Below are positions 10,233 to 28,754 of a stretch of DNA of 29,340 nt, one piece after another. The stretch lies in the IMG/VR virus record IMGVR_UViG_3300033688_000038, positions 1-29,340 of that record; one strand, 5' to 3'. The notes under the pieces are model-generated. The model did no database searches and was not told the origin of the DNA. It saw only the letters and a list, made by a program, of their open reading frames with translations. How positions within the stretch are numbered: the stretch's first letter is position 1; each line of letters starts with the position of its first letter. Position numbers and translations under genes: made by a program. This DNA comes from a virus.

Positions 10233-10263
10233 GTGAGCTTTTAGGGCGGTTTTGTTGTATATA
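10233..10263 (+). promoter_or_regulatory. putative phage-specific (ECF-sigma-type) promoter, copy 1
   Basis: GTGAGCTTTT-N12-TTGTATATA, intergenic, preceded by a TAAA-repeat tract. Confidence 0.75.
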
Positions 10264-10311
10264 ATAGTATAGATAATAAAAACCACCATTATTAATAATT
10301 TGGAGTAACAT

Positions 10312-10983
10312 ATGTTTAAGAAGACTTTACTTGCTGCTGTATTGAGTTTAACTGCTGTTTCTGCTTTCGCAACTGAGGGTGTTGATAAATCAACCACTTG
10401 GTCTAATATCTATGTAGATGGTATCCATTCTGGTTTTAGTGATGAAACTGGTGAACATGATGTAGCTGGTCAGGTTGGTGTTGAAGGTGGTTTTGATTAT
10501 GATAAATTAAGTATGTATGGTTTCGCAGAGCATAACTTCACTGACAATGCTGAATTCTTTAAACTTAGCGGCCATTATACAGTGCTTGATACTAATGTGA
10601 CACTATACAGTCAGGCAACACATTTTCAAGGTGAAGGTTTTGATTCACAAACAGGTGTACTTGGTTTGGGTTATAAACTAGGTGGTGATGGTTGGTCAGT
10701 TAAGCCTTTTATTGGTTATAATGTTAACTCTGATGGTAATCAAGAAGATGGTGGTGTAATGGTTGGTTGGTCTGGTTTCAAAGTCATTGGTACTGGTTTA
10801 TCAGTGTCATCTTGGCATGAAACAGTGGTTACTGATGAAATTACAGCTAATGGTGCTGTTGGTATCTGGCAAGACATCTCTCAACGTGTTTATGTAGGTG
10901 CTCACTATGCCTACCATTTCAATACACGAGGTAATGATGGTTATGGTGATGCCTTACTATTACGTATTGGTATGCATCTATAA
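10312..10983 (+). CDS. outer-membrane beta-barrel protein, probably Tsx/OmpK (nucleoside channel)-like
   Basis: Signal peptide MFKKTLLAAVLSLTAVSAFA; Gly/aromatic amphipathic strands; segments MYGF, VKPF and G.MVGW resemble OmpK/Tsx-family proteins; GGAG SD. Confidence 0.7.
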   Translation: MFKKTLLAAVLSLTAVSAFATEGVDKSTTWSNIYVDGIHSGFSDETGEHDVAGQVGVEGGFDYDKLSMYGFAEHNFTDNAEFFKLSGHYTVLDTNVTLYSQATHFQGEGFDSQTGVLGLGYKLGGDGWSVKPFIGYNVNSDGNQEDGGVMVGWSGFKVIGTGLSVSSWHETVVTDEITANGAVGIWQDISQRVYVGAHYAYHFNTRGNDGYGDALLLRIGMHL

Positions 10984-10991
10984 TAGATAAT

Positions 10992-11014
10992 GGGCGGCCT
11001 TAGGGTCGCCTTTT
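10992..11014 (+). terminator. intrinsic terminator
   Basis: GGCGGCC-TTAG-GGTCGCC followed by TTTT. Confidence 0.85.
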
Positions 11015-11029
11015 CTGTAGGTATTGATT

Positions 11030-11314
11030 ATGAAATGTCCAAAATGTTATAGTGAAATGAAAGTAAGAAATGGAAGATTTGGTGATTTTTACTTCTGTCC
11101 TAAACAATATAGTGGTTGTAAGCAACCCACAATAACTAAGAATCCAAAACGAAGTGAGGCTTCATTAATACTAAGGTCACTAAACTATACACCTGTTTAT
11201 CAAGAATATCGGACCCCAACACCTCCACAACGAATAAGGTCGTGTGCGTGTGGTCAGAATTTGTTTGGTATTGGTATTGATTATTGTAAAGCATGTGGTC
11301 ATTGTGCATCATAA
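11030..11314 (+). CDS. topoisomerase-type C4 zinc-finger protein
   Basis: CPKC...M..RNGRFG.F..C......C motif plus a second CAC..CxxC cluster. Confidence 0.75.
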   Translation: MKCPKCYSEMKVRNGRFGDFYFCPKQYSGCKQPTITKNPKRSEASLILRSLNYTPVYQEYRTPTPPQRIRSCACGQNLFGIGIDYCKACGHCAS

Positions 11315-11537
11315 AGGACTACTATGAACAACCTTGATTGGTGGCAAAGAGAGGCGCTGTATCGGCATATAAGTAGTGTAGTTCATGGGCCTATAATTAG
11401 GTTGCCTCAATACAGAGTAAAGGCTAATAAAGTATCTTGGAAGGCTAAGGTTAGATATTCTGATCAGTATGAAGATACATCTGGTTCTGTACTTTTAAAA
11501 GATTTACACAAACACAACCCATATTAGGAGATTTTGA

Positions 11538-11672
11538 ATGAGTTATAATCAGTTTGATAATAGTTGGCGTCCTGAGCCTGGTAAATATGTTGGAGCTAAA
11601 GATCCTGAAGATGATGGTCTATGTAAATACTGTGGAGCTGAATGGGGCTACAGCAGTTGCCCTTACTGTTAA
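11538..11672 (+). CDS. zinc-finger microprotein (44 aa; not in ORF track)
   Basis: AGGAG SD; CKYC...CPYC. Confidence 0.55.
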   Translation: MSYNQFDNSWRPEPGKYVGAKDPEDDGLCKYCGAEWGYSSCPYC

Positions 11673-11841
11673 TTAGAGAAGAGTATGACTGAAGAAGATT
11701 TAAAACTATACAGTGATTTTCAACAAGAGAATTATTCTAAGAACATCCAAGTATTTATTGACATGGATAAGTTTGATATCCCAGAAAATACATTGACTCT
11801 AAAAGAACTTCAAAAGAAGTATGCCAAATATAGGATTAATT

Positions 11842-12258
11842 ATGCTAAAGTTTAATGAGACAAAAGTTACTCTACTGAATACATTTGTATTAACAATTGA
11901 CGGTATGATTGGTGATGCTGATGGTACAGCCACTCTACGAAAAGAGTTCAGTGACACAGAAGAGAATCATAAAATCTTAGATGAGTTACTATCAATCATA
12001 AATAAATATGAATCAAAATATCATTACCTTGGAATCCTAGAAGATCCTGAGTTTGGTAAATTCTTCGATGAAGAATATGGATTTGATGATGAAACTGGAG
12101 ACCCTCTTCCTGGTTTTGAAAAGGGTAACCCATACTACATAGGTTGCTGGCCATGTGAACCATATGGTTGCGAGAAGTGTGAAATGGAAGGTTGGTTCCT
12201 TTCCTATCATGATGACATGGGTAGAATGTTAGGTGTTACATATGAAAAGGATGCATAA
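11842..12258 (+). CDS. hypothetical acidic protein
   Basis: AGGA SD before ATG 11842. Confidence 0.65.
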   Translation: MLKFNETKVTLLNTFVLTIDGMIGDADGTATLRKEFSDTEENHKILDELLSIINKYESKYHYLGILEDPEFGKFFDEEYGFDDETGDPLPGFEKGNPYYIGCWPCEPYGCEKCEMEGWFLSYHDDMGRMLGVTYEKDA

Positions 12259-12979
12259 ATGAATACATTTGGAGATGTTGTAAAAACAAACATGGATAGT
12301 GGATTACTTGAACACCTTTCTCAATTGGAGTTTAAATTCCAATCTTGGTATAAGAACTCTTTCACTTATACAGTATCTGTTGGAGAAGATATTTACTCAC
12401 TACACATACACCCTGAGTATAGAGACACTCTGTATGCGTCAGAAACCTTTGAAAGTTTAGAATGGTCTGAGCCTTCTTATTTTTATATCTATAAGAATAA
12501 AGAAGAATTGTTTAAATGGAGTGAATAATGCGTGACTTTGATGATATTGATAAACAAATGGATGAGCTCTTCAAAGAGCTTCTAAGTATCCCTGTTGACA
12601 CAAATCTACCAGATGCAATGGTTGGTAAGCCTTATCCTTGGAAATCTTTAGAATCAATCAAGGGTGGCATGAAGAATGGTGAATTGTCCTGTATATGTTC
12701 TGGTAGGAGTTGTTATCGATTTTGAATTACTGTACTGATTGTAAATACTGTTTAAAGTCTTTTAGTTTTGATAGTGATCCAGTTTGTATTGCCCCTGTTG
12801 TTCCTGAACAGATTGACCTAACTAATGGTAAAATTGTTGTATATAATAAATCTTGCCATTATATGAGGCACCCTGGTTATTTCTGGAATGGTGTTGGTGA
12901 ATATTGCCCTCATCATGTAGAAAAAGAAAAAACTTTATTTCAAAAACTTATTAAATTATTTAAATAAAAGGCACACACT

Positions 12980-13189
12980 ATGATTACTAATAATTACTTT
13001 ATTCGTTCTACTTTCCAAAACACCAATTCTACTCACCACAACCATGGTAAATTCTGGAACTGTGAAGAGCGTCAATATTTAATTCAAGCCATGCGTATGG
13101 GTGTTCGTCCAAGTGTAATCTGTAAAACATTAGGACGTTCTCGTAACTCAATAGCTATGAAATTAGTGGACATGGGTATTAATGGTTAG
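12980..13189 (+). CDS. small helix-turn-helix protein
   Basis: W..EE..YL......G.....I..TLGRS.NSI pattern (Myb/GcrA-like HTH). Confidence 0.6.
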   Translation: MITNNYFIRSTFQNTNSTHHNHGKFWNCEERQYLIQAMRMGVRPSVICKTLGRSRNSIAMKLVDMGING

Positions 13190-13461
13190 TAGTTCTAATT
13201 ATCATCCAATAGAAGATGAAGTTGAGTTATGGGAATCTGGTGTAATGTATGACCCTTCTGGTGAGAATACACACTATAAAGAGAGGCCATGTATTTGTTG
13301 GAAATGTGAGGATTGATTGTGACTGATTATTATCGTGATTGTAGATATTGTAGTGCTGATTGGCAGGAAGAACATGAAGATACATGTCCTCTCTATAAAA
13401 AGACAACAGGACAGACAGCGAATTTTAATAATCTAAGAAAACTACATGTGGGGTATGATTG

Positions 13462-13605
13462 ATGGGTGATTTATTAAACGAACGTAAGTGCCCTAAGTGT
13501 GGTTCAACAGATTTAACTAATATAGGTTGTGCCCCTGATGGTATACGATTAAATCTACTGTTTGATTGTAATAAATGTTATTACGGATTTGAGGCTGATT
13601 ATTAA
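13462..13605 (+). CDS. zinc-ribbon microprotein (47 aa; not in ORF track)
   Basis: CPKCGS ... CNKC; TGATG and TAATG coupling with both neighbours. Confidence 0.6.
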   Translation: MGDLLNERKCPKCGSTDLTNIGCAPDGIRLNLLFDCNKCYYGFEADY

Positions 13606-14273
13606 TGAAAACTCTTACAAATTATGCAGCAGGTACTACAGCCAATTGGAATGGTAAGAAACTTCCATATGGTTGGGTTATGGTTAAACGAAATTGCTTT
13701 CTAAACATTCATCTAATTATGAAGAAGTATGATGATCCAAATAATACTAAAGAGGCTGTAAAGCTTCTTCTTGAACGATTGGAGAGTTGATATGTTTGTA
13801 TGGATTATATATGATTACGTTGAGGAGTTAATTCTAGGTACATACAATGCTGATATATGGAAACGTCTAGATGCAGCTGATGAAGTAATGCGTATTCATG
13901 ATATTAATAATGATTATTTAAATAACTACTGTGATTTCTACCACGAGGAGGTTAAATAATATGAAGACATTTGCTATAACAAGTTATACCGATTATGGTC
14001 AAGTGATTGATATAATCAATGCTGATACTCTTGATCGGGCAAAAGAACTTACTGGTATTACTGACCTTGTTTGGCGCAACTATGACATTGAAGAGATAGA
14101 TACTAAATCAGAAGGGATTGTGTTTGTAAGTGGAGGAAGTTACTAATGAATGATTTAAAACCAATTCATACTATATTATTCTATAAGTATGGTGAGCGAC
14201 CTGAAGGTTATCTACCAATGAAAGGAGGATCTAATCCACACTACCAATACTATGTAAGTATTGAGGCTGAATA

Positions 14274-14723
14274 ATGAGTAGAGTATACATAATCTCATCA
14301 GAGGAGGCATGGAGCTTCTTTAATACAGATCACTACTGGCAAGAAAATAGAGTTGATGGTAGGACTATTGAAGATTTAGAGTTTATAATGAAAGATGGTT
14401 ATCATATTGGTTATTACCATAATGGCACCTTAGTATGTGTCACTAAAGTAGATATGATTAATAACATGGACGCAGAGGTTCATACTTATGTTAATCCTTC
14501 CTATATAAGGCTCTCAGAGGTCGCTCTAAGGGCCCACATACAGTTCCTATCCAACGACCAAGGTTATACTAGATTGTATACCACAAGCTCTAATGTGAAT
14601 AAAAGCTGCTATAATTTCTTAACAAAGAGATTAGGTTTTGAAACATACAATATAGATACAGAGTGTAATGTTACCAGGGATGGTCAACAACTTATTATAT
14701 ATAGGATGATGAAGACATTATGA
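14274..14723 (+). CDS. putative GNAT-fold acetyltransferase
   Basis: EVHTYV.P.Y and N.....F..RLGFE motif; about 150 aa. Confidence 0.55.
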   Translation: MSRVYIISSEEAWSFFNTDHYWQENRVDGRTIEDLEFIMKDGYHIGYYHNGTLVCVTKVDMINNMDAEVHTYVNPSYIRLSEVALRAHIQFLSNDQGYTRLYTTSSNVNKSCYNFLTKRLGFETYNIDTECNVTRDGQQLIIYRMMKTL

Positions 14724-14935
14724 TTGGATTTACAAACCCACTTAAAGAGCGTATTTGTGAACTAGAAGCTGAAGTAAAGAAGATCAGCATTGAAAAGGAC
14801 ATACTAGAGGTTGGATATAAACGACTTTCTATTAATGCATCTATTCCACAAAAACCAACAACACTACCACCATCTCATTATGGATATAATGATAGCGTAC
14901 CTTCTGGCTCTAATAATTAATAAGGGATTACAATT

Positions 14936-15193
14936 ATGACTGTAATAGTACGAAATATAGATGATCTTCATAACGCAATTGATTTTATTATAGAAAGCGC
15001 AGAAGATTCTATTCAAACAGAGATGTATACAGAAGAGGCTGTGGATGATATCCGAGAGAGTTCATATGGAGAGGGTCACTCTGACGGACTTGAGGAGGGG
15101 TATGATGAGGGGTATAAAGATGCTCTTACATCTATCACATTAGAGACTGCTTTAGATATGGTAATCTCTGCTGGTTACATTGTAGAGCAGTAG
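14936..15193 (+). CDS. acidic protein with GxxxG repeats
   Basis: YGEGHSDGLEEGYDEGYKD. Confidence 0.6.
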   Translation: MTVIVRNIDDLHNAIDFIIESAEDSIQTEMYTEEAVDDIRESSYGEGHSDGLEEGYDEGYKDALTSITLETALDMVISAGYIVEQ

Positions 15194-15420
15194 AGTTGTT
15201 TTTGTGTAATACATATTATACTTAGAGGAAAGTCTTGATGAATCCAGGAAAAGAGGTTAAAACTAACATAATGACATGGAGTGTTGTTATATTATGCCTA
15301 GTTATATTATATAGTTGTTAGGATTATGTATAGTGATTATGGAAATGTTATTTGTATTCTATGTGGGATTGCAGTTTTAGTAATCCTTTTTATTGGTATT
15401 TTTATAGGTTATTTATTATC

Positions 15421-16029
15421 ATGACAGATTTCTACACTGGTATTGGTAGTCGTGCGACTCCTAGTGAAGTGCTTACCCTTATGACTAAGATTGCTCTAGC
15501 TCTCAAAGAGAAAGGTGTTGTACTTCGTTCAGGAGGGGCAGCTGGGGCTGATACAGCATTTGCTAATGGTGCTGGCAATGTCTCCGAGGTATATGTACCT
15601 TGGAATGGTTTTGGTGAGGCTGGAAATAAACACTACCATGGTGAAAGTGGAGTTGTAGCCCTATCTATGATTTCAACTAAACTTAAATATAGGTGCTATG
15701 AGGTTGCTGGAGAGATACACCCTGCGTGGTTTGCCATGCGTAGAGATTATACTGGCAAGATGGTCCCTGTGCTATCTAGTGCTGTCAAGGCGCTACATGC
15801 ACGTAATGTATTACAAGTCAATGGCCTTACAGGTGATAAATCTAAATTCACTGTATATTGGACAGAGGTTGATAAGGCAGGAAACCCTAAAGGTGGTACT
15901 GCTACTGCTGTAAACCTAACCAAATCTTATAATATCCCTACTTTTAACCTATTTGTATGGGATCAATGTTTAGAGTTTAAGAAGTTTCTACAAGATAATT
16001 ATAATATTGATATGGAGATTAGATACTAA
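15421..16029 (+). CDS. DprA/Smf-like (SLOG superfamily) protein
   Basis: YTGIGSR.TP, LRSGGA.GAD.AF, HARN, GGTATAV, IP.FNL motifs; start revised to ATG 15421. Confidence 0.8.
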   Translation: MTDFYTGIGSRATPSEVLTLMTKIALALKEKGVVLRSGGAAGADTAFANGAGNVSEVYVPWNGFGEAGNKHYHGESGVVALSMISTKLKYRCYEVAGEIHPAWFAMRRDYTGKMVPVLSSAVKALHARNVLQVNGLTGDKSKFTVYWTEVDKAGNPKGGTATAVNLTKSYNIPTFNLFVWDQCLEFKKFLQDNYNIDMEIRY

Positions 16030-16273
16030 TGAAAGATTATACTGTTAAATTAAAGAATGGTTATTCTCATGGATTCAAAGCAGCACGTATGATACAGTGG
16101 AATGGTTTACTTACTTGGGTAGATAAAGATTCTAATTCAGTATTCTTTTGTTGTCCTAGTCAATTTGAATCTTGTTCAGTAGGAGATAAAGTAACTACTT
16201 CTTTACCTTTTTAACTCTTATTACAGTGGATATAAAGAAATATACAATTATTTTAACTTATTTTAATAAATAA

Positions 16274-16303
16274 GTGAGCTTTTTCCGAAAATTATTGTAT
16301 ATA
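16274..16303 (+). promoter_or_regulatory. putative phage-specific (ECF-sigma-type) promoter, copy 2
   Basis: GTGAGCTTTT-N11-TTGTATATA, intergenic, A/T-rich upstream. Confidence 0.75.
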
Positions 16304-16442
16304 TAAGTATATAAGAAATACTGCTTAAGAAGAGATGTTAAATAAAGAGATTAAATAATCTTTATAAGAAGTACTTCTAAGAAGTATTTCTCTAGTAAAA
16401 AACAATTGATTAAATAATTATTAAATAAGTGAGATTAAAAAT

Positions 16443-17183
16443 ATGACTACAACTACATACGCTATCCCAACTACTCGTTCTCCTTCTGCTAACGCTATCA
16501 AATATGATGCATTAGAGTGTGATGTTTATGAGGCTCGTATTGTTCGTTTCATCGGACTGGGTGTTCAAGAGCAACGTGCTTATCAAGGTCAAGCAAAAGA
16601 TCCTGCGTTTAAGTGTTCTGTTCAATTTGAATTAATTGGTGTGGATGCTACAGGTACTAAAGCTGATGGTACTGCCATTGAGCCTCGTCCTGCATGTGTG
16701 TTCCAAGATTACTTTCTATTCCCTGGTGCTAAACGAGGTGGTGTATTCGACCTTTGTTCTGCTGTTGATCCAAGTATTGTTGCTGCTCCTCGTGATTTGA
16801 ATTGGTTTATTAACAATTTAGGTGCTCCTATTATGGTTCAGGTTGGTTCTTACCAAACTCGTGATGGTGTTACTAAGAATACTGTTTCTGCTGTTCAGCC
16901 TATGAGCTCTCGAACTGCTGCTCGTCTTGATGCTGCTCGTTCTGATTTTGTTGGTTTTATTCCTTATGCTGATGATGAAGCTAATGCAGCTTCTTATGAG
17001 AAGATGTTTAAATTCCAGCGTGATATGCTAATGGATGCTAAAGATGTAGCTCACATCCCTTATGCTGGTCGTGAGGTTATCTTTAACAAAGAAGGTTCTG
17101 CTCCAACTGCTCCACGTGTACAACCACAAGCTACAGCCCCACAACAAGGTGGTGTTGATTTTGATGATGATGTACCATTTTAA
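16443..17183 (+). CDS. phage single-stranded DNA-binding protein (putative)
   Basis: Acidic tail DFDDDVPF after a P/Q/A linker; Y.ARIV..I.LGVQ.Q..YQG N-terminus; strong codon bias; next to replication genes. Confidence 0.75.
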   Translation: MTTTTYAIPTTRSPSANAIKYDALECDVYEARIVRFIGLGVQEQRAYQGQAKDPAFKCSVQFELIGVDATGTKADGTAIEPRPACVFQDYFLFPGAKRGGVFDLCSAVDPSIVAAPRDLNWFINNLGAPIMVQVGSYQTRDGVTKNTVSAVQPMSSRTAARLDAARSDFVGFIPYADDEANAASYEKMFKFQRDMLMDAKDVAHIPYAGREVIFNKEGSAPTAPRVQPQATAPQQGGVDFDDDVPF

Positions 17184-17210
17184 TAGATGATTAAAGTCTA
17201 GGATATACTT

Positions 17211-17237
17211 AGCCCATCAAGGATGGTGGGCTTCTTT
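17211..17237 (+). terminator. intrinsic terminator between SSB and sigma genes
   Basis: AGCCCATCA-AGGA-TGGTGGGCT followed by TCTTT. Confidence 0.7.
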
Positions 17238-17254
17238 ATAATAATGGATTTATT

Positions 17255-17842
17255 ATGTCTAAAGATAACAAGAAGTATAGGGGTTTTTCTTACTCTATTA
17301 AAACTCCAACTAAAAAACATTATGTATATTCAGAGCTGTATGCTGAGTACTACCCACAAGTTTACCGTATGGCAATGAAATATTCAGACACCATACAAGA
17401 TGCAGAAGATGTTACCCAAGAGATTTTTATGAGGTTACTGATTAATTGGAATAGGTTAGATTTTAGAAATCTAGCTAAATGTATTTCAATTACATCACAA
17501 CAAACACATAGCAATTGGTTTAAGTATTACGTAAAGCGTGGTGCTGATGTTTACTCCTATGATGATTTGTTCTTACCTGATGCTGATTGGAATCATCCAA
17601 CTTCAGATTTTGGAGACCCATATCAAGAAATGATCAATAGTAATTTATTAGGTTGTTTTGAAGATAAATTTCGTATATTAAAAGATGATGATAAGAGATT
17701 ACTTAATCTTATATATGGAGAGGGTTATACAATTGTAGAAGCTTCAGAAGTACTTGAGATATCAAAAACTGCTGCTGAAAACAGGGTATGGCGAGCTAAA
17801 CAATTAATGGAAACTTGTTATAAGAGGGAAGATTTTCTATAG
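17255..17842 (+). CDS. ECF-type RNA polymerase sigma factor
   Basis: Region 2 YPQVYRMA....QDAEDVTQEIF; region 4 HTH EGYTIVEASEVLEISKTAAENRVWRAK; 195 aa, no region 3. Confidence 0.88.
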   Translation: MSKDNKKYRGFSYSIKTPTKKHYVYSELYAEYYPQVYRMAMKYSDTIQDAEDVTQEIFMRLLINWNRLDFRNLAKCISITSQQTHSNWFKYYVKRGADVYSYDDLFLPDADWNHPTSDFGDPYQEMINSNLLGCFEDKFRILKDDDKRLLNLIYGEGYTIVEASEVLEISKTAAENRVWRAKQLMETCYKREDFL

Positions 17843-17850
17843 GGGGTGGT

Positions 17851-18066
17851 ATGGATGTTATTTACCAAGGTGATATGTACAATGTGCTTGCTGTTAAAAA
17901 GGCAAACAAGTATATAATTGTCAATAAGGTAACTGGGATTATAGAAGGCGAAGAGACTAAGATGCCAACAGCCATTGGAATGGCTAAAGCGTTACAGGGT
18001 GCTTTGCTTAAGATCATCAAGGAAGATGAGAATGAGAGAGACACTAAAGCGCAAGGTATTAATTGA
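17851..18066 (+). CDS. hypothetical protein
   Basis: 71-aa ORF, GGGGG SD. Confidence 0.6.
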   Translation: MDVIYQGDMYNVLAVKKANKYIIVNKVTGIIEGEETKMPTAIGMAKALQGALLKIIKEDENERDTKAQGIN

Positions 18067-19018
18067 TGCAGATATTTTTCGATATCAAGTAGGTGCTGTT
18101 AATATGAAGCATCCTTTTTTAGAGGATGAATTTATACCTGCTTCTATTGAATATATTCACAAGCTAGTAGATGATTTAATTAAAAATACGATTACAGCAT
18201 GTGGAGCAACAGACTATGTGTGTGTATTATCAGGAAAAGGTAATTTCCGAGACGATATTGCTAAACAAGCTGTATACAAAGGAAATCGAAACCCTAATCT
18301 TACTAGACCATTCCACTTCAAAACAGTGGAAGATCACATCAAGGAGTCGCATCCTTATTTTGAGACTTCTGGCATTGAAGCTGATGACTGGCTGGGTACA
18401 CAACAGTATGAGGATTGGAAAGAAACAACTTTCAATGAACTCACTAAAATATATGGAGAAACTAATCCAAGCAAATTAGCAACGATTATTGCCTCCAGAG
18501 ATAAAGATTTACGAACAGTACAAGGGTGGCACTACTCATGGGCTTGTGGTAAGAAACAGCCAGAGAAACCTTTGTATTATATCTCCCCTTATGATGGTAT
18601 GCATATGTTCATGTACCAGATGTTAATTGGTGATAATACTGATAATATTGTTGGGTGTGGCATTCGCTCAGAAGTTAAATGGGGTTTTGTAAAGGATGAG
18701 GATGGTAATTTTATCCTTGACGAGAATGAGAAAAAGATACCAAATATGGTATTACGTCGGAAAGGTATTGGTAAATCTAAAGCTATTAAACTTTTAGATG
18801 AAGCTAATGATGTTCGTGACATGTTAGGTATTGTTACCAAAGAATATAAAGAGTTATTCCCAGATAATTATGAAGAAATCATGATTGAGAATGCTCGATT
18901 ACTATTCATTGGGCAATTAGTTGATAGTCTATTTGAGTGGTCTTGGTTAGATAAATATCTTGACATTAAGAGCCCAACTACTGTGCTACCTCCAGAGGTT
19001 TATGATGACAAAAGCTAG
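18032..19018 (+). CDS. 5'-3' exonuclease / RNase H (T7 gp6, FEN-like)
   Basis: LIDAD, NFR....YKGNR, EADD, SRDKDL, GD.TDNI.G motifs. Confidence 0.92.
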   Translation: MRETLKRKVLIDADIFRYQVGAVNMKHPFLEDEFIPASIEYIHKLVDDLIKNTITACGATDYVCVLSGKGNFRDDIAKQAVYKGNRNPNLTRPFHFKTVEDHIKESHPYFETSGIEADDWLGTQQYEDWKETTFNELTKIYGETNPSKLATIIASRDKDLRTVQGWHYSWACGKKQPEKPLYYISPYDGMHMFMYQMLIGDNTDNIVGCGIRSEVKWGFVKDEDGNFILDENEKKIPNMVLRRKGIGKSKAIKLLDEANDVRDMLGIVTKEYKELFPDNYEEIMIENARLLFIGQLVDSLFEWSWLDKYLDIKSPTTVLPPEVYDDKS

Positions 19019-19114
19019 TCTATCAAAGGAAATTGAAGAATTAAAAACTGCAGATAAGAAGCGCAAACGCGCAGCAGCATATGAAGTTTATTTAAAAAAT
19101 AAGGAATCTAAATA

Positions 19115-20045: not shown

Positions 20046-20049
20046 TATA

Positions 20050-20078
20050 AAAGGGAGGCCTCGGCTTCCCTTTCTTTT
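20050..20078 (+). terminator. intrinsic terminator
   Basis: AAAGGGAGGC-CTCG-GCTTCCCTTT followed by CTTTT. Confidence 0.85.
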
Positions 20079-20503: not shown

Positions 20504-20953
20504 ATGCCACAATATCGGAAAGGGAATATGCTTGTCCACCTCGATGAGTGTAACTATGCATGTATAACCACTAATGCAATGATTAGAAAAGATAACCATT
20601 TAGTTATGGGTCGAGGTATTGCTCAACAAGTGCGTGATAGTTTCCCTGGTATTGCTGAAGACTTAGGAACTTCTATAAGTTTATTAGAAGGTAAATTACC
20701 TAAATATGGTCTACTGAGGAGTAAGTTATATCCGAGTATGATTGCTTTCCAAGTAAAATATCATTGGCATGATGAAGCTGATTTAGAACTTATTAAATAT
20801 AGCACTACTATGCTAACCAATGGGGCGAACAAAAATACTAATAGGGTATACTTCTTGAACTTCCCTGGGATTGGTAATGGGAAATTAAGTAGAGAAGATG
20901 TGCTGCCTATTATAGAGCAGTTACCTAATAATGTAACAATCTGGGAATATTAA
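20504..20953 (+). CDS. macrodomain (ADP-ribose binding/hydrolase) protein
   Basis: KGN, ITTN....VMGRGIA.Q....FP, F.VK.HW, P.IG.G.L motifs. Confidence 0.85.
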   Translation: MPQYRKGNMLVHLDECNYACITTNAMIRKDNHLVMGRGIAQQVRDSFPGIAEDLGTSISLLEGKLPKYGLLRSKLYPSMIAFQVKYHWHDEADLELIKYSTTMLTNGANKNTNRVYFLNFPGIGNGKLSREDVLPIIEQLPNNVTIWEY

Positions 20954-21359
20954 TATGTTCGAAGGTAAGTTATACATAACATGCTATGAATTGAACGGAG
21001 AACCTGCCGTAGAGGTTAGTATTCCTAATGGAAAATCTTGCGTTGATTTGAATGAAGACTCTATTAGACAAGCTATAGTTGATTTACAGGAAGCATTAAA
21101 ATGATTTCAATAAATAGAGCTCTGGATAGTAAAGCTAGTGCTAATAGAGTGCATTGGATATGCAAAAATCATATTGCACTAAAAGATTATACAGCAGCAG
21201 AGCTGTATGATGAAGTTTGGAAACATGAATCTCTTAAAGATGATGATTATTATGAAGAAATGTGTAATGGAGTTCTTGATTCTTTGACAGGTTGGTGTCA
21301 CCCCTCATGGAGTTTGGAAAACTTAAGCAATCATGTTTTTCTTGGAAAGGAGTTACAAT

Positions 21360-21848
21360 ATGACGATAGCATTTGAAATTGAATATAAATACCTTTGCCC
21401 ATATCTTACTTTATGGATTTTACATGACAACTATGATGTAGTTTCCTCAAATTTTATAAGCCAGTATTACTTACCTGATGGTACACGGTTACGTAAAACA
21501 ACTTTAATCGATAATTCAGATGAAAAGTATTTTATTACAAAGAAAACCCCTACTGATGATCCACGAGTGTGGATTGAAGATGAAAGATTTGTAACTAAAG
21601 ATGAATATCTTGAGAATTGGCGAGAAGGACTACCTAGTATTCATAAAATAAGAGCAAAGGTTTTATATGAAAATAACGTTTGGGAAGTTGATTTTTATGA
21701 TGGCTTAGATGGATTGACTACAGCAGAACTTGAAGTACCATCTATTGATTATGAATTTAAAATACCATCATTCTGTACACAAGATGTTACAGCAGATGTA
21801 GCATACAAGAATTATAATCTAGCAAAAATAGGAACAACTTATGAGTAA
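21360..21848 (+). CDS. CYTH-domain (triphosphate tunnel) protein
   Basis: EIEYKYL, RLR, K.R, WEVD, AELE, DVT....Y.N motifs. Confidence 0.88.
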   Translation: MTIAFEIEYKYLCPYLTLWILHDNYDVVSSNFISQYYLPDGTRLRKTTLIDNSDEKYFITKKTPTDDPRVWIEDERFVTKDEYLENWREGLPSIHKIRAKVLYENNVWEVDFYDGLDGLTTAELEVPSIDYEFKIPSFCTQDVTADVAYKNYNLAKIGTTYE

Positions 21849-22414
21849 AGGTAAATTAGTGTGGATTGCCGAGCACCCAACAAATCCTGAAAGTAAGGAG
21901 GTTCGTTTTGAAGAGCCTTACACTGAAGGAGAGCATGTCTATGGTGGTGAAGATGGCTATTCTCCTTATGTTAAGTGGAAACAATATGTATTAATTGAGG
22001 TGGAATAATGTTAAAACAAACTTACTGGGATTACTGGTCAGGTGATGCTAACTATGAATTTCATGGTAAAGAGTTCACAAGGCTTTTTAGTGGTGAGTGG
22101 GAGTTTGATAACACTCCTTGTAATGAGCACATGCAATATATGCTAGAAGATGTATACCAAAAAGAACAAGAAAGAACATCTAAATATCAAGCTATTGGAG
22201 TTAAATTATGATTGTAGTAACTAATAATGAATATGGTTGGGATTGTGTAGTCCAGGTGTGTGCTTCAATGGAAGATGCAGTGTATTTCCTGAATACAGAT
22301 TTTCATCAGTATGACCCAAATGAGTATAAAACAGAATCTGAATTTGAAGATATTTGCTTTGTATTTACCGAAACTTCACTTTACACTAAACCAGAATAAT
22401 ATAGGATCATAAGC

Positions 22415-23524
22415 ATGGATAGCGTTACTTTATATGGTGCAACAAAAGGTGGTAAGTTTAAGCAATGGACAGTTCATACGGAAGGTGCGTATGTGGTCAT
22501 GACATACGGAGCAGTCAATGGAAAAATGCAAGTCAAGAAGATACTCGCTAAAGCGAAAAATGTGGGAAGAGCTAATGCGACTACTGCGGAGCAACAAGCA
22601 ATCTCAGAAATGAACTCAAGAGCCGCAAAACAGTGGGATAAGTGTTATCGTGAAACCTGTGAAGATGCTGCTAACGTAGGGCGTCTATTACCGATGCTAG
22701 CAAGTGACTATACTAAAGTTGGACATCGTATCAACTACCCTTGTTGGGTCTCTAGGAAGCTCGATGGGGTGCGTTGTATCACTGTTGTGGATAAAGTTAA
22801 GAAGACTGTTCGTATGATCAGTCGAGGAGGCAAAGATTATCCAGTGCCATCTCACCTATACAAAGATTTAATCCTATTAGCAGAGTCAACTGATACTTGG
22901 GAGTTTGATGGTGAGTTATACATCCACGGTATCAGTTTACAGAATATTGTATCTGCTGTTAAAAAACCTAACCCATTAACCCCTCGTATTGAATATCACA
23001 TCTTTGATGTCCCAGATGAAGAAGCAGAATGGCAATACCGTTACATGGATTTGGAAGCCATGCAGGTCTGGAAGCTTGCTAATAGAGATAAGTGTAAGCA
23101 GATTAAAATTGTAATGAATGAGGTTGCTGAGAATGAAAGCCATGCTCGTGAGTTCATGAATGAGTGGATTGAAGATGGATATGAGGGTATTATGCTTCGT
23201 AACCGAACTGGTATGTATGAGTCAAATCACCGTTCAGGTACACTCCAGAAATGGAAAGACTTCCAAGACTTAGAAGCTAAGGTACTCCGAGTTACAGAGG
23301 ACAATATTGGAGAAGGTGTTTTACATGTCCGTAGCGCAGAAGGTGCTGAGTTTAAATGTAAAATGCGTGGCAATCATGAATATCGTTCTTTCGAGAACCA
23401 AAATAGCCTAATTGATCAGTGGATTAATGTCCGCTTTCAGCAATTTACAGATGATAATATTCCTCAATTTCCAGTAGGAACTGGTGTTCGTGCTTGTACT
23501 CCAGAAGGTGTTCCACTTGATTAA
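22415..23524 (+). CDS. ATP-dependent DNA ligase
   Basis: PMLA, KLDGVRC, FDGELY, FD, EGIMLR, RS....K.K; N-terminal WGR-like extension. Confidence 0.95.
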   Translation: MDSVTLYGATKGGKFKQWTVHTEGAYVVMTYGAVNGKMQVKKILAKAKNVGRANATTAEQQAISEMNSRAAKQWDKCYRETCEDAANVGRLLPMLASDYTKVGHRINYPCWVSRKLDGVRCITVVDKVKKTVRMISRGGKDYPVPSHLYKDLILLAESTDTWEFDGELYIHGISLQNIVSAVKKPNPLTPRIEYHIFDVPDEEAEWQYRYMDLEAMQVWKLANRDKCKQIKIVMNEVAENESHAREFMNEWIEDGYEGIMLRNRTGMYESNHRSGTLQKWKDFQDLEAKVLRVTEDNIGEGVLHVRSAEGAEFKCKMRGNHEYRSFENQNSLIDQWINVRFQQFTDDNIPQFPVGTGVRACTPEGVPLD

Positions 23525-24218
23525 TCAACCACATAAAATTGTATCACAATATTACTTAGATAATATCTGTGAATTAGCTGAGGTGAGGTGTGACGAAAGT
23601 CACCCTCAAGCTTACCACCATTTAGCTTGGATGTGCCACACAATAATCCATAAGCCAATGTCAGACACTAAAGCCAACAGATGGTTAGGGTATGTCCAAG
23701 GTGTGTTAGCTGTCAATGATAAGCTTTGTGTAGCTTCTGAGAGAACTAGAACTAGAGAAACATTTGGAGGATTATAAGAATGACTAAAGTACTAATTACA
23801 CGCCACTGGTCTGGTTACTGTCGCGGTTATACTGAGCATGAGCTTGAAGTTGCACCAGAAGAATTACAAGAGCTTATGAACAGGAAAGAGATTGTAGGTG
23901 AGTATTTCTGGGAAGGGGATGAGGTGGATATTAATATTATCCGAGATGATACAGAAACAGATCATTATGAATTTGAGGTTGTAGAGTAATGAATTGGATT
24001 CTAGTTATAATGGTTGTTATGGGTGGAGGTAAAGGTTTAACAACCTTACCTCACAATTTCAAAACACTATCTGAGTGTCAAGAGGTTGGTCGGTTATGGA
24101 GAATAAATGATGACGTCTCAATTTTTGATGATAAATCAAAAGAAGGTATTGATGCTAATAAATACTTTAAGTGCCTACCTGTAAAACCTAACCACAATAC
24201 AGAATGGAAATAATAACA

Positions 24219-24593
24219 ATGAGCACACCAGAATTATTTACACCATATTATGTCATGAATGATACTAAGCGTAATGTAAACATTGCTATTGATTTTGATG
24301 ATACTATTACCACTGATAAAGAAATGTGGCTCAAAATTATCCAAGTAATGAAAGATTGCGGACACACAATTAAGGTAGTAACTGCCCGTTTTGATGTTGC
24401 TGATTTGAATGATGACATCAGAAATTTTACCCTTAATCTTGAAATAGATGCCATCTTCTGTGGAGGATTGCAGAAAGAAGCTAAATGCCGTTCACTAGGT
24501 TGGATGCCAGATATTTGGATTGATGATTTGCCTTGGGCAATACCTTTACCATCTAAGCTAGTAAAACGTGCTACAGATATTGGTGTAATTTAA
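24219..24593 (+). CDS. HAD-superfamily phosphatase (cap-less)
   Basis: IDFDDT, VTAR, K, IDD motifs I-IV. Confidence 0.85.
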   Translation: MSTPELFTPYYVMNDTKRNVNIAIDFDDTITTDKEMWLKIIQVMKDCGHTIKVVTARFDVADLNDDIRNFTLNLEIDAIFCGGLQKEAKCRSLGWMPDIWIDDLPWAIPLPSKLVKRATDIGVI

Positions 24594-24599
24594 TTAAAC

Positions 24600-24621
24600 G
24601 GGCATTCGTGCCCTTTATTTT
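24600..24621 (+). terminator. intrinsic terminator
   Basis: GGGCA-TTCG-TGCCC followed by TTTATTTT. Confidence 0.8.
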
Positions 24622-24797
24622 CTAAATCAAGGAATGATTATGAAAACTATTGAAGTTAGTATTAAAATGATTGCCACTTACGAAGAAGTAGATATGACTC
24701 CACATGATATCAAGAAGATAGAAATGTCTATTGAATCTCACATGTGTAATGAATTCGCTGAGTTTGAATCTATTGACGTAAAAGTGGAGGATTATTA

Positions 24798-25025
24798 ATG
24801 TCAGGACTAATGGTTACTATATCAGTAGAAGAGTATAAACGATTACATACCTCAGAGCAAAAACTAGACTACCTTGAAAGTGCTGGTGTAGATAACTGGA
24901 GTGGTTATGATTATATGTATGAACTAATGGAAGATAGTGATGATGAAAATATTGAAGATATTTCTTTAGAGAAATTTATCAAAGAATATATAACTCCTGA
25001 GATGTTATCAAGTGATTATGAGTAA
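24798..25025 (+). CDS. small phage protein with GVDNWxGY motif
   Basis: VTIS.EEY..L and LE.AGVDNWSGYD; GGAGG SD. Confidence 0.65.
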   Translation: MSGLMVTISVEEYKRLHTSEQKLDYLESAGVDNWSGYDYMYELMEDSDDENIEDISLEKFIKEYITPEMLSSDYE

Positions 25026-25028
25026 TTT

Positions 25029-25382
25029 ATGAAACTCTATACAATACAAAATGGAAAGTATCGAAAAGCTAAAGGTCAGTTTGTAGATACTACTGTGAAG
25101 ACAGGTGTGGTGTATTTTGCACCAACCTGGGATATGGTATTACAATATAAAAATAAAATAATTTGTGAGGATGTGTATATTTCTTTGTATACTAATCTCA
25201 TGCGTCAATCATTCAAAGATAATAATCTTGTTTGGCTAAAGTTATTTGATTTTGAAGAAATAACCCTTGGTTGTTATTGTAAAGCTGGTGATTTCTGTCA
25301 TCGACACTTATTAGTAGAAATGTTACTAAAAATTGGTGAGAAATATAATAGACCAGTTGAATATTGTGGAGAGGTAGAATGA
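25029..25382 (+). CDS. DUF488/DUF4326-like protein
   Basis: FAPTWDM and LGCYC.....CHR..L motifs. Confidence 0.65.
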   Translation: MKLYTIQNGKYRKAKGQFVDTTVKTGVVYFAPTWDMVLQYKNKIICEDVYISLYTNLMRQSFKDNNLVWLKLFDFEEITLGCYCKAGDFCHRHLLVEMLLKIGEKYNRPVEYCGEVE

Positions 25383-25551
25383 GTGCTATTTTCAAGAAAG
25401 ATAGTTCAGGTGATTGGTATAACTCTGAAAATGGATATTATTTAGGAAACCATGATACATATGTACACCTCTTAGAGGTGGGACACCCTTTAGAGACTAT
25501 AATTAACACGATCATGTACGGTGTAAATAATAGTTTATCAGGAGAGTAAAA

Positions 25552-25962
25552 ATGAAACGTTATAACTTATTCAAAACAAGTGCTCCAGGTTGGGAATTAC
25601 GTGGTGCTGGTATTAAAATGGTTATTGATTTACTAGAAGAACATACATGTAAGATTTGTATTGAAGATGAAACAGATGTTACATTAAAAGGTTACACTGA
25701 GGTTTGGTTAAATGAATTACGTGGGACTTGTTGTGCTTGTGAGTTTGTTGTAGAAACAGAACCTGACAACTTCCTTGATAGATTAGAATTAGAGTATGAT
25801 GAATTAGTTGATAAATCACATGATTTAAAATTATTCCTTGAAAATCCACAATCAGTAGATGTATCTGAATGGGAGTATACAATGATGAAGTCTCAATTAC
25901 ATGCAATGGAATCATATAGCTCAGCATTACTATCTAGAATCGCACACCATAATAAGGTTTAA
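25552..25962 (+). CDS. hypothetical protein: Cys-containing N-domain plus C-terminal coiled-coil hairpin
   Basis: C..C / C..C pairs; RL..E..EL.....L..F ... Q..AM..Y...L..RI; AGGAG SD. Confidence 0.65.
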   Translation: MKRYNLFKTSAPGWELRGAGIKMVIDLLEEHTCKICIEDETDVTLKGYTEVWLNELRGTCCACEFVVETEPDNFLDRLELEYDELVDKSHDLKLFLENPQSVDVSEWEYTMMKSQLHAMESYSSALLSRIAHHNKV

Positions 25963-26146
25963 TTATGAATAAAGTTTATATTGTCTCATCAACACATCAC
26001 ATGGGGATGGACGGAGATTACACAGAAATTGTATGTCTCACACGAGATAAGAATAAAGCACAAGAAGAGTGTGATAAAATAGAAGCTCTTCCTTATGAAG
26101 ATTATAATTGGTATTCAGGTGATATTGAAGAGTGGGAGTTAGTATA

Positions 26147-26731
26147 ATGAGTAAGAAGGTTTATATCGGTGGGCATTGTTTGAATCGTGGTGGACAACTA
26201 CAACGATCTGAAGAAGCTCAAATGGTTCGGGAACTAGGTCATGACATCTACTGTCCTCAAGAAAACAAAGAAATTAACGACAAATCTAATGCTGTTCAAG
26301 AAGCTCTTGCTGAACGTATCGTGAGTCATGATACTGATGCTATCTTGTGGTCTGATACTGTTATTATTGAGCCTGATAATTGCGCACTCGGTACTCATAT
26401 TGAGTTAGGTCAATTACTAGGTATGCGTGATTTGTCCGAAATGATAGTGGAGATAGCTAACACTCATTTTGAGAATAACCGAGGTAAGACAGAAGACCTT
26501 GATTATCTCTTGATTTCGGAGATTTTAAAGTTATGTATGGAACAGCTTAATCGTAAAGTTTACCCACACCTTGAAGATATTCGTCTATTAGGTCCTACAG
26601 GTGATGGTTATCGGTCTACGTTTGGAATCAATGCCTATGTAACTGGAGCTTGTATTAAACTTGCTAATGACCCTGTGGGAGCACCTGATGGCTTCTATAC
26701 TATAGATCAAATCAAGAAGGAGTTATCATAA
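26147..26731 (+). CDS. nucleoside 2-deoxyribosyltransferase / N-glycosidase family protein
   Basis: VYIGG, Y.PQE, D..AI..SD, GT..ELG (catalytic Glu), N.Y motifs. Confidence 0.8.
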   Translation: MSKKVYIGGHCLNRGGQLQRSEEAQMVRELGHDIYCPQENKEINDKSNAVQEALAERIVSHDTDAILWSDTVIIEPDNCALGTHIELGQLLGMRDLSEMIVEIANTHFENNRGKTEDLDYLLISEILKLCMEQLNRKVYPHLEDIRLLGPTGDGYRSTFGINAYVTGACIKLANDPVGAPDGFYTIDQIKKELS

Positions 26732-26906
26732 TGCCTATATTATTATCCACTGCACTGGGTATCTTATTAGCAGCAGCAATTATTTCCTTTATTGTACTCT
26801 TACGTGATATGTACTCAGAGACTTCTTCTACTGTACGGAGGGTAGAACGATTGGAAACAAAATACTGGGAGTTACGGAACCAAATTAGTGATTTGGAGAA
26901 TAAATA

Positions 26907-27302
26907 ATGGCTCATATTTTTATTGAATACGTTAGTGATTATTGGGATTGTGAAACTTGTGGTGGTAGTTCTGCCGATGGGGCTACTGTTGAAATAGATG
27001 GTAAACCCTTCGGTGATTTTTACCCAGCAGCACATTGCTATGATAGCTTAACTTATAGTAATGATGATATTTATTGCTCTTTATTAGAGCATTTAGGGAT
27101 TACAGTTAAGAAAGATGATCACGGATATCTTAATGAAGATTTTAACTTATCTGACACTCTTGAAGCCAACGGACACACGCTGGATGAGGGTTTTATAACA
27201 ATTAGTAATTATGACTATATGGATGACGATGATGATTGGGATAATCTATATGAAGAAGGTTTAGACCCAGAAGAGCATGAGGAGTGGGTTGAAAATGTTT
27301 AA
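26907..27302 (+). CDS. hypothetical acidic protein with DCETCG motif
   Basis: GGAG SD; 131 aa. Confidence 0.65.
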   Translation: MAHIFIEYVSDYWDCETCGGSSADGATVEIDGKPFGDFYPAAHCYDSLTYSNDDIYCSLLEHLGITVKKDDHGYLNEDFNLSDTLEANGHTLDEGFITISNYDYMDDDDDWDNLYEEGLDPEEHEEWVENV

Positions 27303-27419
27303 ATTTGAATATAAATGCTGTGAAGGTGGTGGGCCAATGTCAGCGGGATGTTATCATGATCATTGTAAAGGGGCTAGGGTTATAAAGATACCAACTTTCT
27401 TCAAGGAGAAAGGTGATAA

Positions 27420-28085
27420 GTGATAACTTTCAAAAAGATATGGGCAGCTATCGCCCTAACTACTGTGCCAATCGCTAGCATTGCCTCAGGAGCTCCTGCT
27501 CTAATTACTGGTGTAATGTTAGTTGGTATTATCTTTGTACTAGGTATTGCTTTTAGTTGGAAACATGCAAACCTATTTGGAGCACTAACTGCTGCTGGTT
27601 TTGGTTTCATATCCTTTGATCAAGGTCTGATAGGTAATGCAGTAATTAACTGGTTGTTCGTAATACCTATGTCATTGTATGGATGGTGGTCTTGGTGTAA
27701 TAATAATGAAGTAGATGTTGCTGAGAAAAGAACACTGGGTCTAATTAAGTTTAATTGGCTACTTATGGGTGCTTCAGCAGCTATCTCGTTTGTGTATCTA
27801 CTAATATTATCCTTACCAGAAGGTGTTGTTTTATTCAAATCACCTATACCAATTGATAGTGTATTACTTGACGCTGTGACTACAGTATTACCCGTAGCTG
27901 CTACGTTGTTATTAGTTAACTCATACAAAGAACAATGGTATCTATGGATTCCATATAACATGCTTGAGATGTTCTTGTGGGTGATGGTGTATATGACTAA
28001 CCCTGCACTATTACCAATACTAATCATGAGAGCTGTGTTCCTTATAAACTCCATAATCGGGGCTTATGAGTGGAATAAGAAGTAA
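27420..28085 (+). CDS. pnuC: PnuC-family (nicotinamide riboside-type) membrane transporter
   Basis: Multiple TM helices; N..FG, YGWW.W, LDA.TT, EQW..WI..N motifs. Confidence 0.88.
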   Translation: MITFKKIWAAIALTTVPIASIASGAPALITGVMLVGIIFVLGIAFSWKHANLFGALTAAGFGFISFDQGLIGNAVINWLFVIPMSLYGWWSWCNNNEVDVAEKRTLGLIKFNWLLMGASAAISFVYLLILSLPEGVVLFKSPIPIDSVLLDAVTTVLPVAATLLLVNSYKEQWYLWIPYNMLEMFLWVMVYMTNPALLPILIMRAVFLINSIIGAYEWNKK

Positions 28086-28092
28086 TTAAAAT

Positions 28093-28113
28093 AAGGAGCC
28101 TTGAGCTCCTTTT
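28093..28113 (+). terminator. intrinsic terminator
   Basis: AAGGAGC-CTTGA-GCTCCTT followed by TT. Confidence 0.75.
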
Positions 28114-28137
28114 CATTTATATAAACAAGGTAGTATT

Positions 28138-28701
28138 ATGGCTCAGTTATATTTTAACTTCTCAACAATGAATGCTGGTAAATCAACTTCATTATTACAA
28201 TGTAACCACAACTACAAAGAGCTGGGGATGACCACAATGCTCTTCACATTTGCAGGTGATGACAGGTATGGAATTGGAAAGATAACATCTCGTATTGGCT
28301 TAGAGGCTGATGCTAGTTTGTTTGATAAGGATACCGACTTACTTAGCTCTGTTTATAATTCATCTGAAGAAAAACTACCTGATTGTGTTTTAATAGATGA
28401 AGCTCAATTCCTAACTAAAGATCAAATAGAACAACTTAGTACACTAGTTGATTATTATAATGTACCTGTTATGTGTTATGGATTGCGTACTGATTTCCAA
28501 GGGAACTTATTTGAAGGTTCTGCTTCTCTGTTCGCTGCTGCGGACAAACTTGTTGAGATGAAAACATTATGTCGTTGTGGATCTAAAGCAACACATGTTG
28601 TACGTATTGACAAGGATGGTGTTATAGTAAAAACTGGTGATCAGATTCAGATTGGAGGAAATGATAGTTATATCTCTGTATGTAGACGTCATTTTAGTTA
28701 A
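28138..28701 (+). CDS. tdk: thymidine kinase
   Basis: MNAGKST, SRIG, DEAQF, YGLRTDF, C.CG ... IGG...Y.SVCR.H. Confidence 0.96.
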   Translation: MAQLYFNFSTMNAGKSTSLLQCNHNYKELGMTTMLFTFAGDDRYGIGKITSRIGLEADASLFDKDTDLLSSVYNSSEEKLPDCVLIDEAQFLTKDQIEQLSTLVDYYNVPVMCYGLRTDFQGNLFEGSASLFAAADKLVEMKTLCRCGSKATHVVRIDKDGVIVKTGDQIQIGGNDSYISVCRRHFS

Positions 28702-28724
28702 TTAATAAATATTTGCTAAAAGAT

Positions 28725-28754
28725 GTGAGCTTTTCTCCACTTTAGTTGTATATA
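28725..28754 (+). promoter_or_regulatory. putative phage-specific (ECF-sigma-type) promoter, copy 3
   Basis: GTGAGCTTTT-N11-TTGTATATA, intergenic. Confidence 0.75.

Follow-up and report, generated by a model that had tools for sequence, protein, structure and literature searches.

The stretch of DNA analysed here (the window, 29,340 nucleotides in its whole length) comprises bases 1-29340 of a 124,877-bp virus record, IMGVR_UViG_3300033688_000038, and carries a gene for a sigma factor of the extracytoplasmic function (ECF) type together with three strict copies of a two-box sequence motif. We have found that these copies belong to a family of 14 sites along the genome, and we propose that the motif probably represents a class of non-early (middle or late) promoters read by the core RNA polymerase of the host together with the phage sigma factor. 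The reading of the motif as the cognate promoter of this sigma factor is well supported, by the anatomy of the sites and by a close analogy with the gp47 system of Salmonella phage 7-11. Systems of this kind have already been published in the phiEco32/7-11 phage group, and no new mechanism is revealed; what is new is the consensus. It was originally predicted that the sigma factor and the motif form an autoregulatory pair driving a replication-stage regulon. Anatomy and the 7-11 gp47 analogy speak for the pair and for its autoregulation, which was proposed because one copy heads the unit made up of a single-stranded DNA-binding protein (SSB)-like gene and the sigma gene, but they do not extend to the replication-stage scope.

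The motif family and the phage sigma factor

In the window the pattern GTGAGCTTTT-N10-13-TTGTATATA was matched exactly three times, at 10233-10263, 16274-16303 and 28725-28754, always on the plus strand and with the spacing GTGAGCTTTT-N11/12-TTGTATATA, whereas none of 100 dinucleotide-preserving shuffles of the window contained a single match; the three coding-strand copies of the original prediction are thus exact. Neither half was enriched by itself, as TTGTATATA with no more than one mismatch gave 28 matches against 24 expected and GTGAGCTTTT gave 4 against 2.2, so that it is their combination that carries the signal. All open reading frames (ORFs) of the window, whatever their length, are on the plus strand, and the copies lie in AT-rich gaps, with 56, 147 and 95 nt between TGTATA and the start codons at 10312, 16443 and 28842, so that the siting in A/T-rich intergenic gaps held for all three.

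The wider family was first recognised by listing every TGTATA of the record with its flanks. Its consensus is tGTGAG(C/T)-N15-17-TGTATAta, and GTGAG-N15-18-TGTATA has 14 exact sites in the 124,877-bp genome, whereas 200 dinucleotide-preserving shuffles gave 0.445 on average and never more than 3. The window copies are the GTGAGC-TTTT subset and the strictest members of the family. In the alignment of the copies the spacer between the GTGAGN hexamer and TGTATA measures 15-17 nt, and conservation continues outside the boxes used in the search: GTGAG is preceded by T and followed by C or T and then by a T-run, TGTATA stands between a T and TA, and the tract upstream is A/T-rich. GTGAGCT and TGTGAGT rank among the intergenic 7-mers with the highest enrichment, and every intergenic tTGTATAta site has a GTGAG box upstream.

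The genes of the record are arranged in three blocks, on the plus strand from 1 to 30302, on the minus strand from 30355 to 99103 and again on the plus strand from 99260 to 124877, and the orientation of the motif follows the gene strand in 13 of the 14 copies. Twelve copies are intergenic, point in the same direction as the next gene and precede it by 22-401 nt. The genes that they precede (Table 1) include those of the major head protein, a tail fibre and other virion proteins, and a cluster of transfer RNA (tRNA) genes on the strand opposite to that of the window genes. Since the motif heads virion and tRNA genes as well, it is better described as a general non-early (middle or late) promoter class than as a replication-specific one. 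Scanning the full genome, which had been put forward as a check on the original prediction, therefore favoured a motif family wider than a replication-stage regulon, for which no support was found.

The ECF-type sigma gene was likewise confirmed, and it is the sole sigma gene of the genome. Its product scored 38 bits against Sigma70_r2 of Pfam (cut-off 24) and matched phrog_1740 with E=1.5e-22, whereas Sigma70_r4_2, at 24.8 bits, fell just below its cut-off of 25.7. The protein aligns to Bacillus subtilis SigW over residues 25-185 (E=1.2e-4). An AlphaFold model built on an alignment of 46 sequences has two helical domains and a mean pLDDT (predicted local distance difference test score) of 86, and its top Foldseek matches are all ECF sigma factors (SigE, SigL and SigH of Mycobacterium tuberculosis; AlgU; Escherichia coli sigmaE (RpoE); SigW); the phiEco32 gp36 chain 9m7y_F ranked 36 (E=0.039). 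The model of the C-terminal domain, sigma4, superposes on the E. coli sigmaE region 4/-35 DNA complex with a template modelling (TM) score of 0.81. The sequence is an isolated one, with only 8 cluster representatives among 1.8 billion proteins at E<1e-10. Identity is 34-84% for the sigma relatives P0002-P0009 and 21-25% for the best GenBank phage matches. No relatives were obtained from IMG/VR through the sigma protein, and in metagenome contigs a profile of its ten closest relatives recovered only generic cellular ECF sigma factors of at most 28% identity, the pattern used being the universal DAED motif.

A second class of promoters was found far from the motif copies of the window. On the plus strand, at 98486, 98564 and 98694, a perfect TTGACA is followed each time by a good -10 hexamer. 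These three tandem promoters (98486-98725) stand upstream of the plus-strand block that begins at 99260, within a 2.8-kb divergent non-coding region that is probably the genome terminus and early leader, and two of them have a near-identical 30-nt sequence in common. Early sigma-70 promoters occupy the same position in phiEco32 and SU10 (PMC4281155) and in 7-11 (PMC8948821). When the record is read as circularly permuted, the plus strand from the tandem promoters to 10233 is free of motif copies, and the layout would then be one of early promoters, about 36 kb of early genes and the motif-headed units. No strong sigma-70 promoter was predicted next to the sigma gene. A search for a single-subunit RNA polymerase (PF00940) gave no match in this genome, nor in the control genomes, and is hence uninformative.

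For the reader of the motif, its start sites and the timing of expression we infer the following course. Host sigma-70 would transcribe the early genes from the three tandem promoters at about 98.5 kb, and read-through of the long plus-strand unit would supply a first small amount of the phage sigma factor. Sigma4 would bind the -35-like tGTGAG(C/T) and sigma2 would melt the -10-like TGTATA 15-17 nt downstream, with transcription starting about 6-9 nt past TGTATA, as in 7-11 and phiEco32. The sigma-holoenzyme would fire the 16274 copy, giving the SSB-like protein in bulk, and transcripts that pass the hairpin at 17211 would yield more sigma in a positive feedback, while other copies would turn on the secreted-protein cassette, the distal nuclease block, the virion genes of the opposite strand and the tRNA cluster.

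Some individual copies have features of their own. The tRNA cluster (93906-94440, minus strand) codes for Trp, Ser-GCU, Arg-UCU, Gly-UCC and Ser-UGA and begins 22 nt after a TGTATA box, and the phage tRNAs appear to be under the control of the phage sigma factor. At 107397-107424 on the minus strand a full-consensus copy, GTGAGG-N16-TGTATA, is found in the gap before a plus-strand lipoprotein-like gene and in the opposite direction to it; no ORF of at least 25 aa follows within 900 nt, and the sequence downstream is AT-rich with AGGAATATTCCT-type palindromes, which makes this copy a candidate promoter of an antisense or small RNA. The copies at 16274-16303 and 62401-62430 (minus strand) differ at one position only, the central spacer base, and have in common the near-palindromic spacer TTTTTC(C/G)GAAAATT, which may serve as an intra-promoter operator bound by a dimeric regulator.

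Other readings of the motif

Several observations weigh against reading the motif as the promoter of the phage sigma factor. Two of the 14 copies are not placed as promoters of a following gene, since that at 25165 is inside an ORF, where it could act as an internal promoter or have arisen by chance, and that at 107424 (minus strand) has no ORF ahead of it. Cellular ECF promoters typically have an AAC core in the -35 box, and the -35-like box here has none. A good sigma-70 -10 hexamer stands just downstream in several copies, TGTATATAAT being read at 10256, 41527 and 62408 and TGTATAAT at 49496, and it is possible that host sigma-70 makes some use of the motif copies. Furthermore, a promoter motif predicted computationally for 7-11 from an intergenic repeat, TGATGT-TATA (PMC4331800), differs from the consensus later established by experiment (PMC8948821), and repeated intergenic motifs can therefore mislead.

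Taken to its full extent, use by the host would mean that all copies are primary sigma-70 promoters with a TATAAT-like -10, a nearby TG and a weak -35 (GTGAGC in place of TTGACA), and that the phage sigma factor has no role in reading them, which we consider improbable. GTGAGC does have TGA in common with TTGACA, at a spacing of 17-19 nt, and in the SU10 paper it was suggested that some phiEco32-type middle promoters may serve both holoenzymes (PMC4281155). What is invariant among the copies, however, is TGTATA, whereas the hexamer downstream of it varies (TATACT, TACATT, TACTTA and others), and whichever way the sites are read, the TG misses the extended -10 register by one base. The clear sigma-70 promoters of the genome, those with a perfect TTGACA, are confined to a cluster at its early end, whereas the motif heads late virion genes, and in 7-11 the homologous late promoters were not transcribed by the sigma-70 holoenzyme (PMC8948821).

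The two boxes might also have two readers. TGTATA would then be recognised by the phage sigma factor or by host sigma-70, and GTGAG(C/T)TTTT would be bound by a separate phage activator in the manner of the T4 MotA box. The upstream box with its T-run (GAGCTTTT) in the window copies presumably bears a loose resemblance to a MotA-type box at about -30, and the near-palindromic spacer of the 16274 and 62430 copies could bind a regulator. In the descriptions quoted by later papers, phiEco32 promoters were long given as the single element tAATGTAtA. This arrangement is nevertheless unlikely, as a well-folded sigma4 is predicted, its model superposing on a sigma4/-35 DNA complex, and the spacing of 15-17 nt is that of a bipartite promoter contacted by sigma2 and sigma4. 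In 7-11, gp47 and the core polymerase alone suffice for GTAAtg-N16-aCTA (PMC8948821), and even in phiEco32 the C-terminal domain of gp36 contacts the -35 region (PMC12276001). With the gp79 protein, the cofactor of phiEco32 gp36, and the phrog_8339 profile as queries no gp79 homologue was found in the genome, although a very divergent analogue is still possible and no search was made for MotA or AsiA homologues.

That the motif is no promoter at all, and instead a target of recombination or homing, a signal for replication or packaging, or what is left of a duplicated cassette, is very improbable. The close identity of the 16274 and 62430 copies, the HNH and other endonuclease genes that adjoin some copies and the mismatch between the predicted 7-11 repeat and the experimental consensus would fit such an origin. 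The other copies, on the other hand, have unrelated spacers and have yet kept the boxes and the distance between them, they follow the gene strand as described above, and their distances to start codons or to the tRNA 5' end are promoter-like.

The SSB-sigma module and the other units of the window

The sigma gene lies in a module in which the SSB-like gene, a hairpin, the sigma gene, a small ORF and a 5'-3' exonuclease gene (ending at 19018) follow one another, with a ligase gene further on. The same order was found in 7-11, Privateer, LAh_8, APT65 and ECO319P1, and also in Vp_R1, where one extra ORF precedes the sigma gene. A G+C-rich hairpin followed by a T-run stands in the gap between the SSB-like and sigma genes in 7 of 7 genomes (this phage, 7-11, Privateer, LAh_8, Vp_R1, APT65 and ECO319P1), and had previously been published for 7-11 and GAP52 only. 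This hairpin is a candidate for a conserved attenuator, or an element of RNA processing or stability, that sets the dosage of sigma.

The product of the SSB-like gene ends in DFDDDVPF, the classical acidic tip of an SSB, which agrees with the label that the original prediction had given to it, although that label was checked only in part. When the SSB-like protein was searched in IMG/VR, only the Privateer and vB_CsaP_009 records were returned. In the predicted 147-nt leader of this gene (16309-16442) the first 70 nt are more stable than shuffled sequences (z=-3.0), and the leader has repeated AAGAAgTAcTTCT-like inverted repeats, similar ones being present upstream of the Vp_R1 homologue; these repeats may be an autoregulatory operator comparable to that of T4 gene 32. 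A 5' hairpin common to the predicted motif transcripts was considered and set aside, as only the SSB leader and that of the major head gene (z=-2.7) are structured.

Directly after the sigma gene, an ORF is annotated in the records of 7-11, LAh_8, APT65 and ECO319P1 as well. Here it codes for a conserved protein of 71 aa that is closer to its 7-11 counterpart, gp46 (38% identity), than the sigma factor is to gp47 (24%). The product could be a partner of sigma or an anti-sigma factor; no anti-sigma factor was recognised, and the 71-aa ORF is without an HxxxCxxC motif.

The gene at 10312, which had been labelled a porin, codes for a protein with a Sec signal peptide (MFKKTLLAAVLSLTAVSAFA) and a mature part rich in beta structure and aromatic residues. 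The label is plausible on these grounds, but no Pfam match was obtained. Terminator-like hairpins follow 10983, 17183, 19348, 20045 and 28085, and the units that they bound are probably short and highly expressed.

Table 1. Coordinates of the candidate promoters, genes and hairpins in the window, and start positions in the record of the genes downstream of motif copies
Feature	Position	Strand	Remarks
Candidate promoter, copy 1	10233..10263	+	GTGAGC 10233-10238 (-35-like), 17-nt spacer, TGTATA 10256-10261 (-10-like); ATG 10312 56 nt downstream
Gene of secreted 223-aa, beta-rich protein (phrog_37748)	10312..10983	+	Downstream of motif copy; single-gene unit between copy 1 and terminator
Intrinsic-terminator-like hairpin (8 pairs, 6 G-C), then T run	10992..11011	+	Ends the 10312 unit
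Candidate promoter, copy 2	16274..16303	+	GTGAGC, 16-nt spacer, TGTATA 16296-16301; SSB-like gene 147 nt downstream
SSB-like gene (phrog_6599)	16443..17183	+	Downstream of motif copy; homologue of 7-11 gp48 and phiEco32 gp40
Hairpin, then TCTTT	17211..17232	+	Between SSB-like gene and sigma gene
Sigma gene, 195-aa two-domain (sigma2 + sigma4) ECF-type product	17255..17842	+	Pfam, phrog_1740, AlphaFold/Foldseek
71-aa ORF	17851..18066	+	Directly after sigma gene; conserved, 38% identical to 7-11 gp46
Possible extra copy, GTGAGG-N16-TGTATA	25165..25191	+	Within ORF 25029-25382
Candidate promoter, copy 3	28725..28754	+	GTGAGC, 16-nt spacer, TGTATA 28747-28752; ATG 28842 95 nt downstream
Copy-3 unit	28842..29340	+	Downstream of motif copy; 66-aa ORF 28842-29042, then endonuclease gene (phrog_945) 29042-29500, past window end
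159-aa and 571-aa gene pair	41465		Downstream of motif copy
Tail fibre, 1,814 aa	49457		Downstream of motif copy
Virion structural protein	61878		Downstream of motif copy
78-aa ORF	62267		Downstream of motif copy
152-aa protein, then tail-collar-like gene	66297		Downstream of motif copy
Major head protein	78677		Downstream of motif copy
Five-tRNA cluster	94397		Downstream of motif copy; first tRNA gene 22 nt past box
119-aa protein, then collagen-like fibre gene	95883		Downstream of motif copy
HNH endonuclease	96426		Downstream of motif copy

Comparison with known sigma/promoter systems

Over short stretches only, the DNA is 65-70% identical to members of the phiEco32/7-11 group (Salmonella 7-11, Proteus Privateer, Cronobacter vB_CsaP_009, and Aeromonas and Vibrio relatives), and by its sequence the phage is distantly related to both Salmonella phage 7-11 and coliphage phiEco32. 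In 2022, Lavysh and colleagues demonstrated by primer extension, in vitro transcription and potassium permanganate (KMnO4) probing that 7-11 gp47 together with the E. coli core polymerase reads eight late promoters of the form GTAAtg-(16)-aCTA, with starts 6-9 nt downstream, and that the sigma-70 holoenzyme is inactive on them (PMC8948821). Gene 48, directly upstream of the sigma gene 47 and separated from it by a hairpin, has one of these promoters, P48, in front of it, and a positive feedback through P48 was proposed (PMC8948821). A check of the 7-11 sequence showed GTAAGT-N16-ACTA in front of gp48, and gp47 is preceded by GCCCTCTTCGGAGGGC and a T-run.

The 7-11-type pattern gave 9 matches against 1 in the control in 7-11, and 2 against 7 in the genome studied here, where GTAAtg-(16)-aCTA is also at chance in a shuffle test (16 against 16.0). 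Conversely, the motif described here is absent from Privateer, vB_CsaP_009, phiEco32, 7-11, LAh_8, APT65 and ECO319P1, and the single match in Vp_R1 equals the control count and looks like chance. As the 7-11 pattern is at chance here and the motif is absent from relatives whose sigma factors are 21-25% identical, the motif tracks the divergent sigma factor. Privateer and vB_CsaP_009 have 7-11-type sites, including one at the SSB-like gene; ATAATGTA upstream of the SSB-like gene of Privateer was considered as a phiEco32-type promoter and rejected, since the site fits the 7-11 consensus as GTAAGT-N16-GCTA. In Escherichia phage ECO319P1 a 7-11-type GTAAGA-N16-ACTA upstream of the SSB-like gene runs into TAATGTATA, the consensus of phiEco32 gp36, so that both types of box overlap. 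A looser form of the motif run over IMG/VR gave more than 115 contigs with a single match each, which is consistent with chance and uninformative.

A hybrid promoter form was predicted to be possible by Lavysh et al., and the motif might tentatively be taken as such a hybrid, in which an upstream box of the 7-11 kind (GT-purine-A) is set about 16 nt from a TGTAtA like that of phiEco32. The sigma/promoter pairs of the group would then have diverged stepwise from one ancestral pair instead of being acquired independently, and would include a third, mutually orthogonal set usable with the enterobacterial core RNA polymerase. This is a speculative extension that we hold to be rather doubtful, the stepwise descent being suggested by short motifs only. 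The system would be a clean, sequence-defined third case of a sigma/promoter pair in the phiEco32/7-11 group, with a recognition sequence that was not found in the eight relatives compared. It allows the transcription programme of an uncultured 125-kb phage to be read from sequence, with putative sigma-70 early promoters followed by about 14 predicted sigma-dependent units and a feedback on sigma, and it offers material for studying the co-evolution of sigma2 and sigma4 specificity with promoters as well as a candidate orthogonal expression part.

Like cellular ECF (group IV) sigma factors, the phage protein has only the sigma2 and sigma4 domains with a short linker between them, and its best sequence and fold matches are found among them. 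Their promoters, too, have two boxes about 16 nt apart, the -10 box being of the form xGTAta; the promoter of B. subtilis SigW, for example, is TGAAAC-N16-CGTAta. The phage system differs in being phage-encoded, in serving what would be a developmental switch in place of a stress regulon and, as noted, in its upstream box and the lack of a recognisable anti-sigma factor.

The sigma factor and phiEco32 gp36 both match phrog_1740, and the two phages have in common the TGTAtA core of the -10-like box and a site before the SSB-like homologue, which in phiEco32 is the promoter P40. phiEco32 gp36 has been reported, in a study known here through later papers that cite it (Pavlova et al. 2012, cited in PMC8948821 and PMC12276001), to read tAATGTAtA with gp79 as cofactor. 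Transcription there starts 6-8 nt past the box, and by cryo-electron microscopy it was shown in 2025 that the C-terminal domain of gp36 also touches the -35 region (PMC12276001). The similarity to gp36 is nonetheless marginal (BLASTP E=0.023 over 71 residues, N-terminus only), positions -14/-13 are not AA in the motif, and the upstream box is strongly conserved and apparently obligatory. AATGTAT is not enriched in this genome (40 against 45.9 in shuffles), and only the TGTATA core is common to the two. The -37G/-34A contacts of phiEco32 fit P68 (GGTAG) but not P26, and no firm comparison of the -35 regions was drawn.

The closest parallel is with 7-11, a member of the same phage group in which SSB-like gene, hairpin, sigma gene, small ORF and exonuclease gene follow in the same order. 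The promoters of both phages consist of two boxes about 16 nt apart, of which the upstream one starts with G-T-purine-A; one promoter stands before the SSB-like gene, with a likely positive feedback on sigma, and others before virion genes. In both, early sigma-70 promoters lie at the far genome end and no gp79 homologue is found. The copy at 16274 is the positional counterpart of P48 in 7-11, as it is of P40 in phiEco32. The sigma factor itself is 24% identical to SaPh711_gp47 over residues 14-154 (72% of its length; tblastn E=1e-5), a weak homology that is consistent with the shared gene order, and a joint alignment of the sigma factors has invariant N-terminal positions at P..K, AED..QE, W, D..YD and DP. 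The boxes have changed, from GTAAtg there to GTGAG(C/T) here and from aCTA to TGTATA. The genome described here, which is known from its sequence alone, is 35 kb larger than that of 7-11 and carries 14 copies of its motif, compared with the eight late promoters of 7-11.

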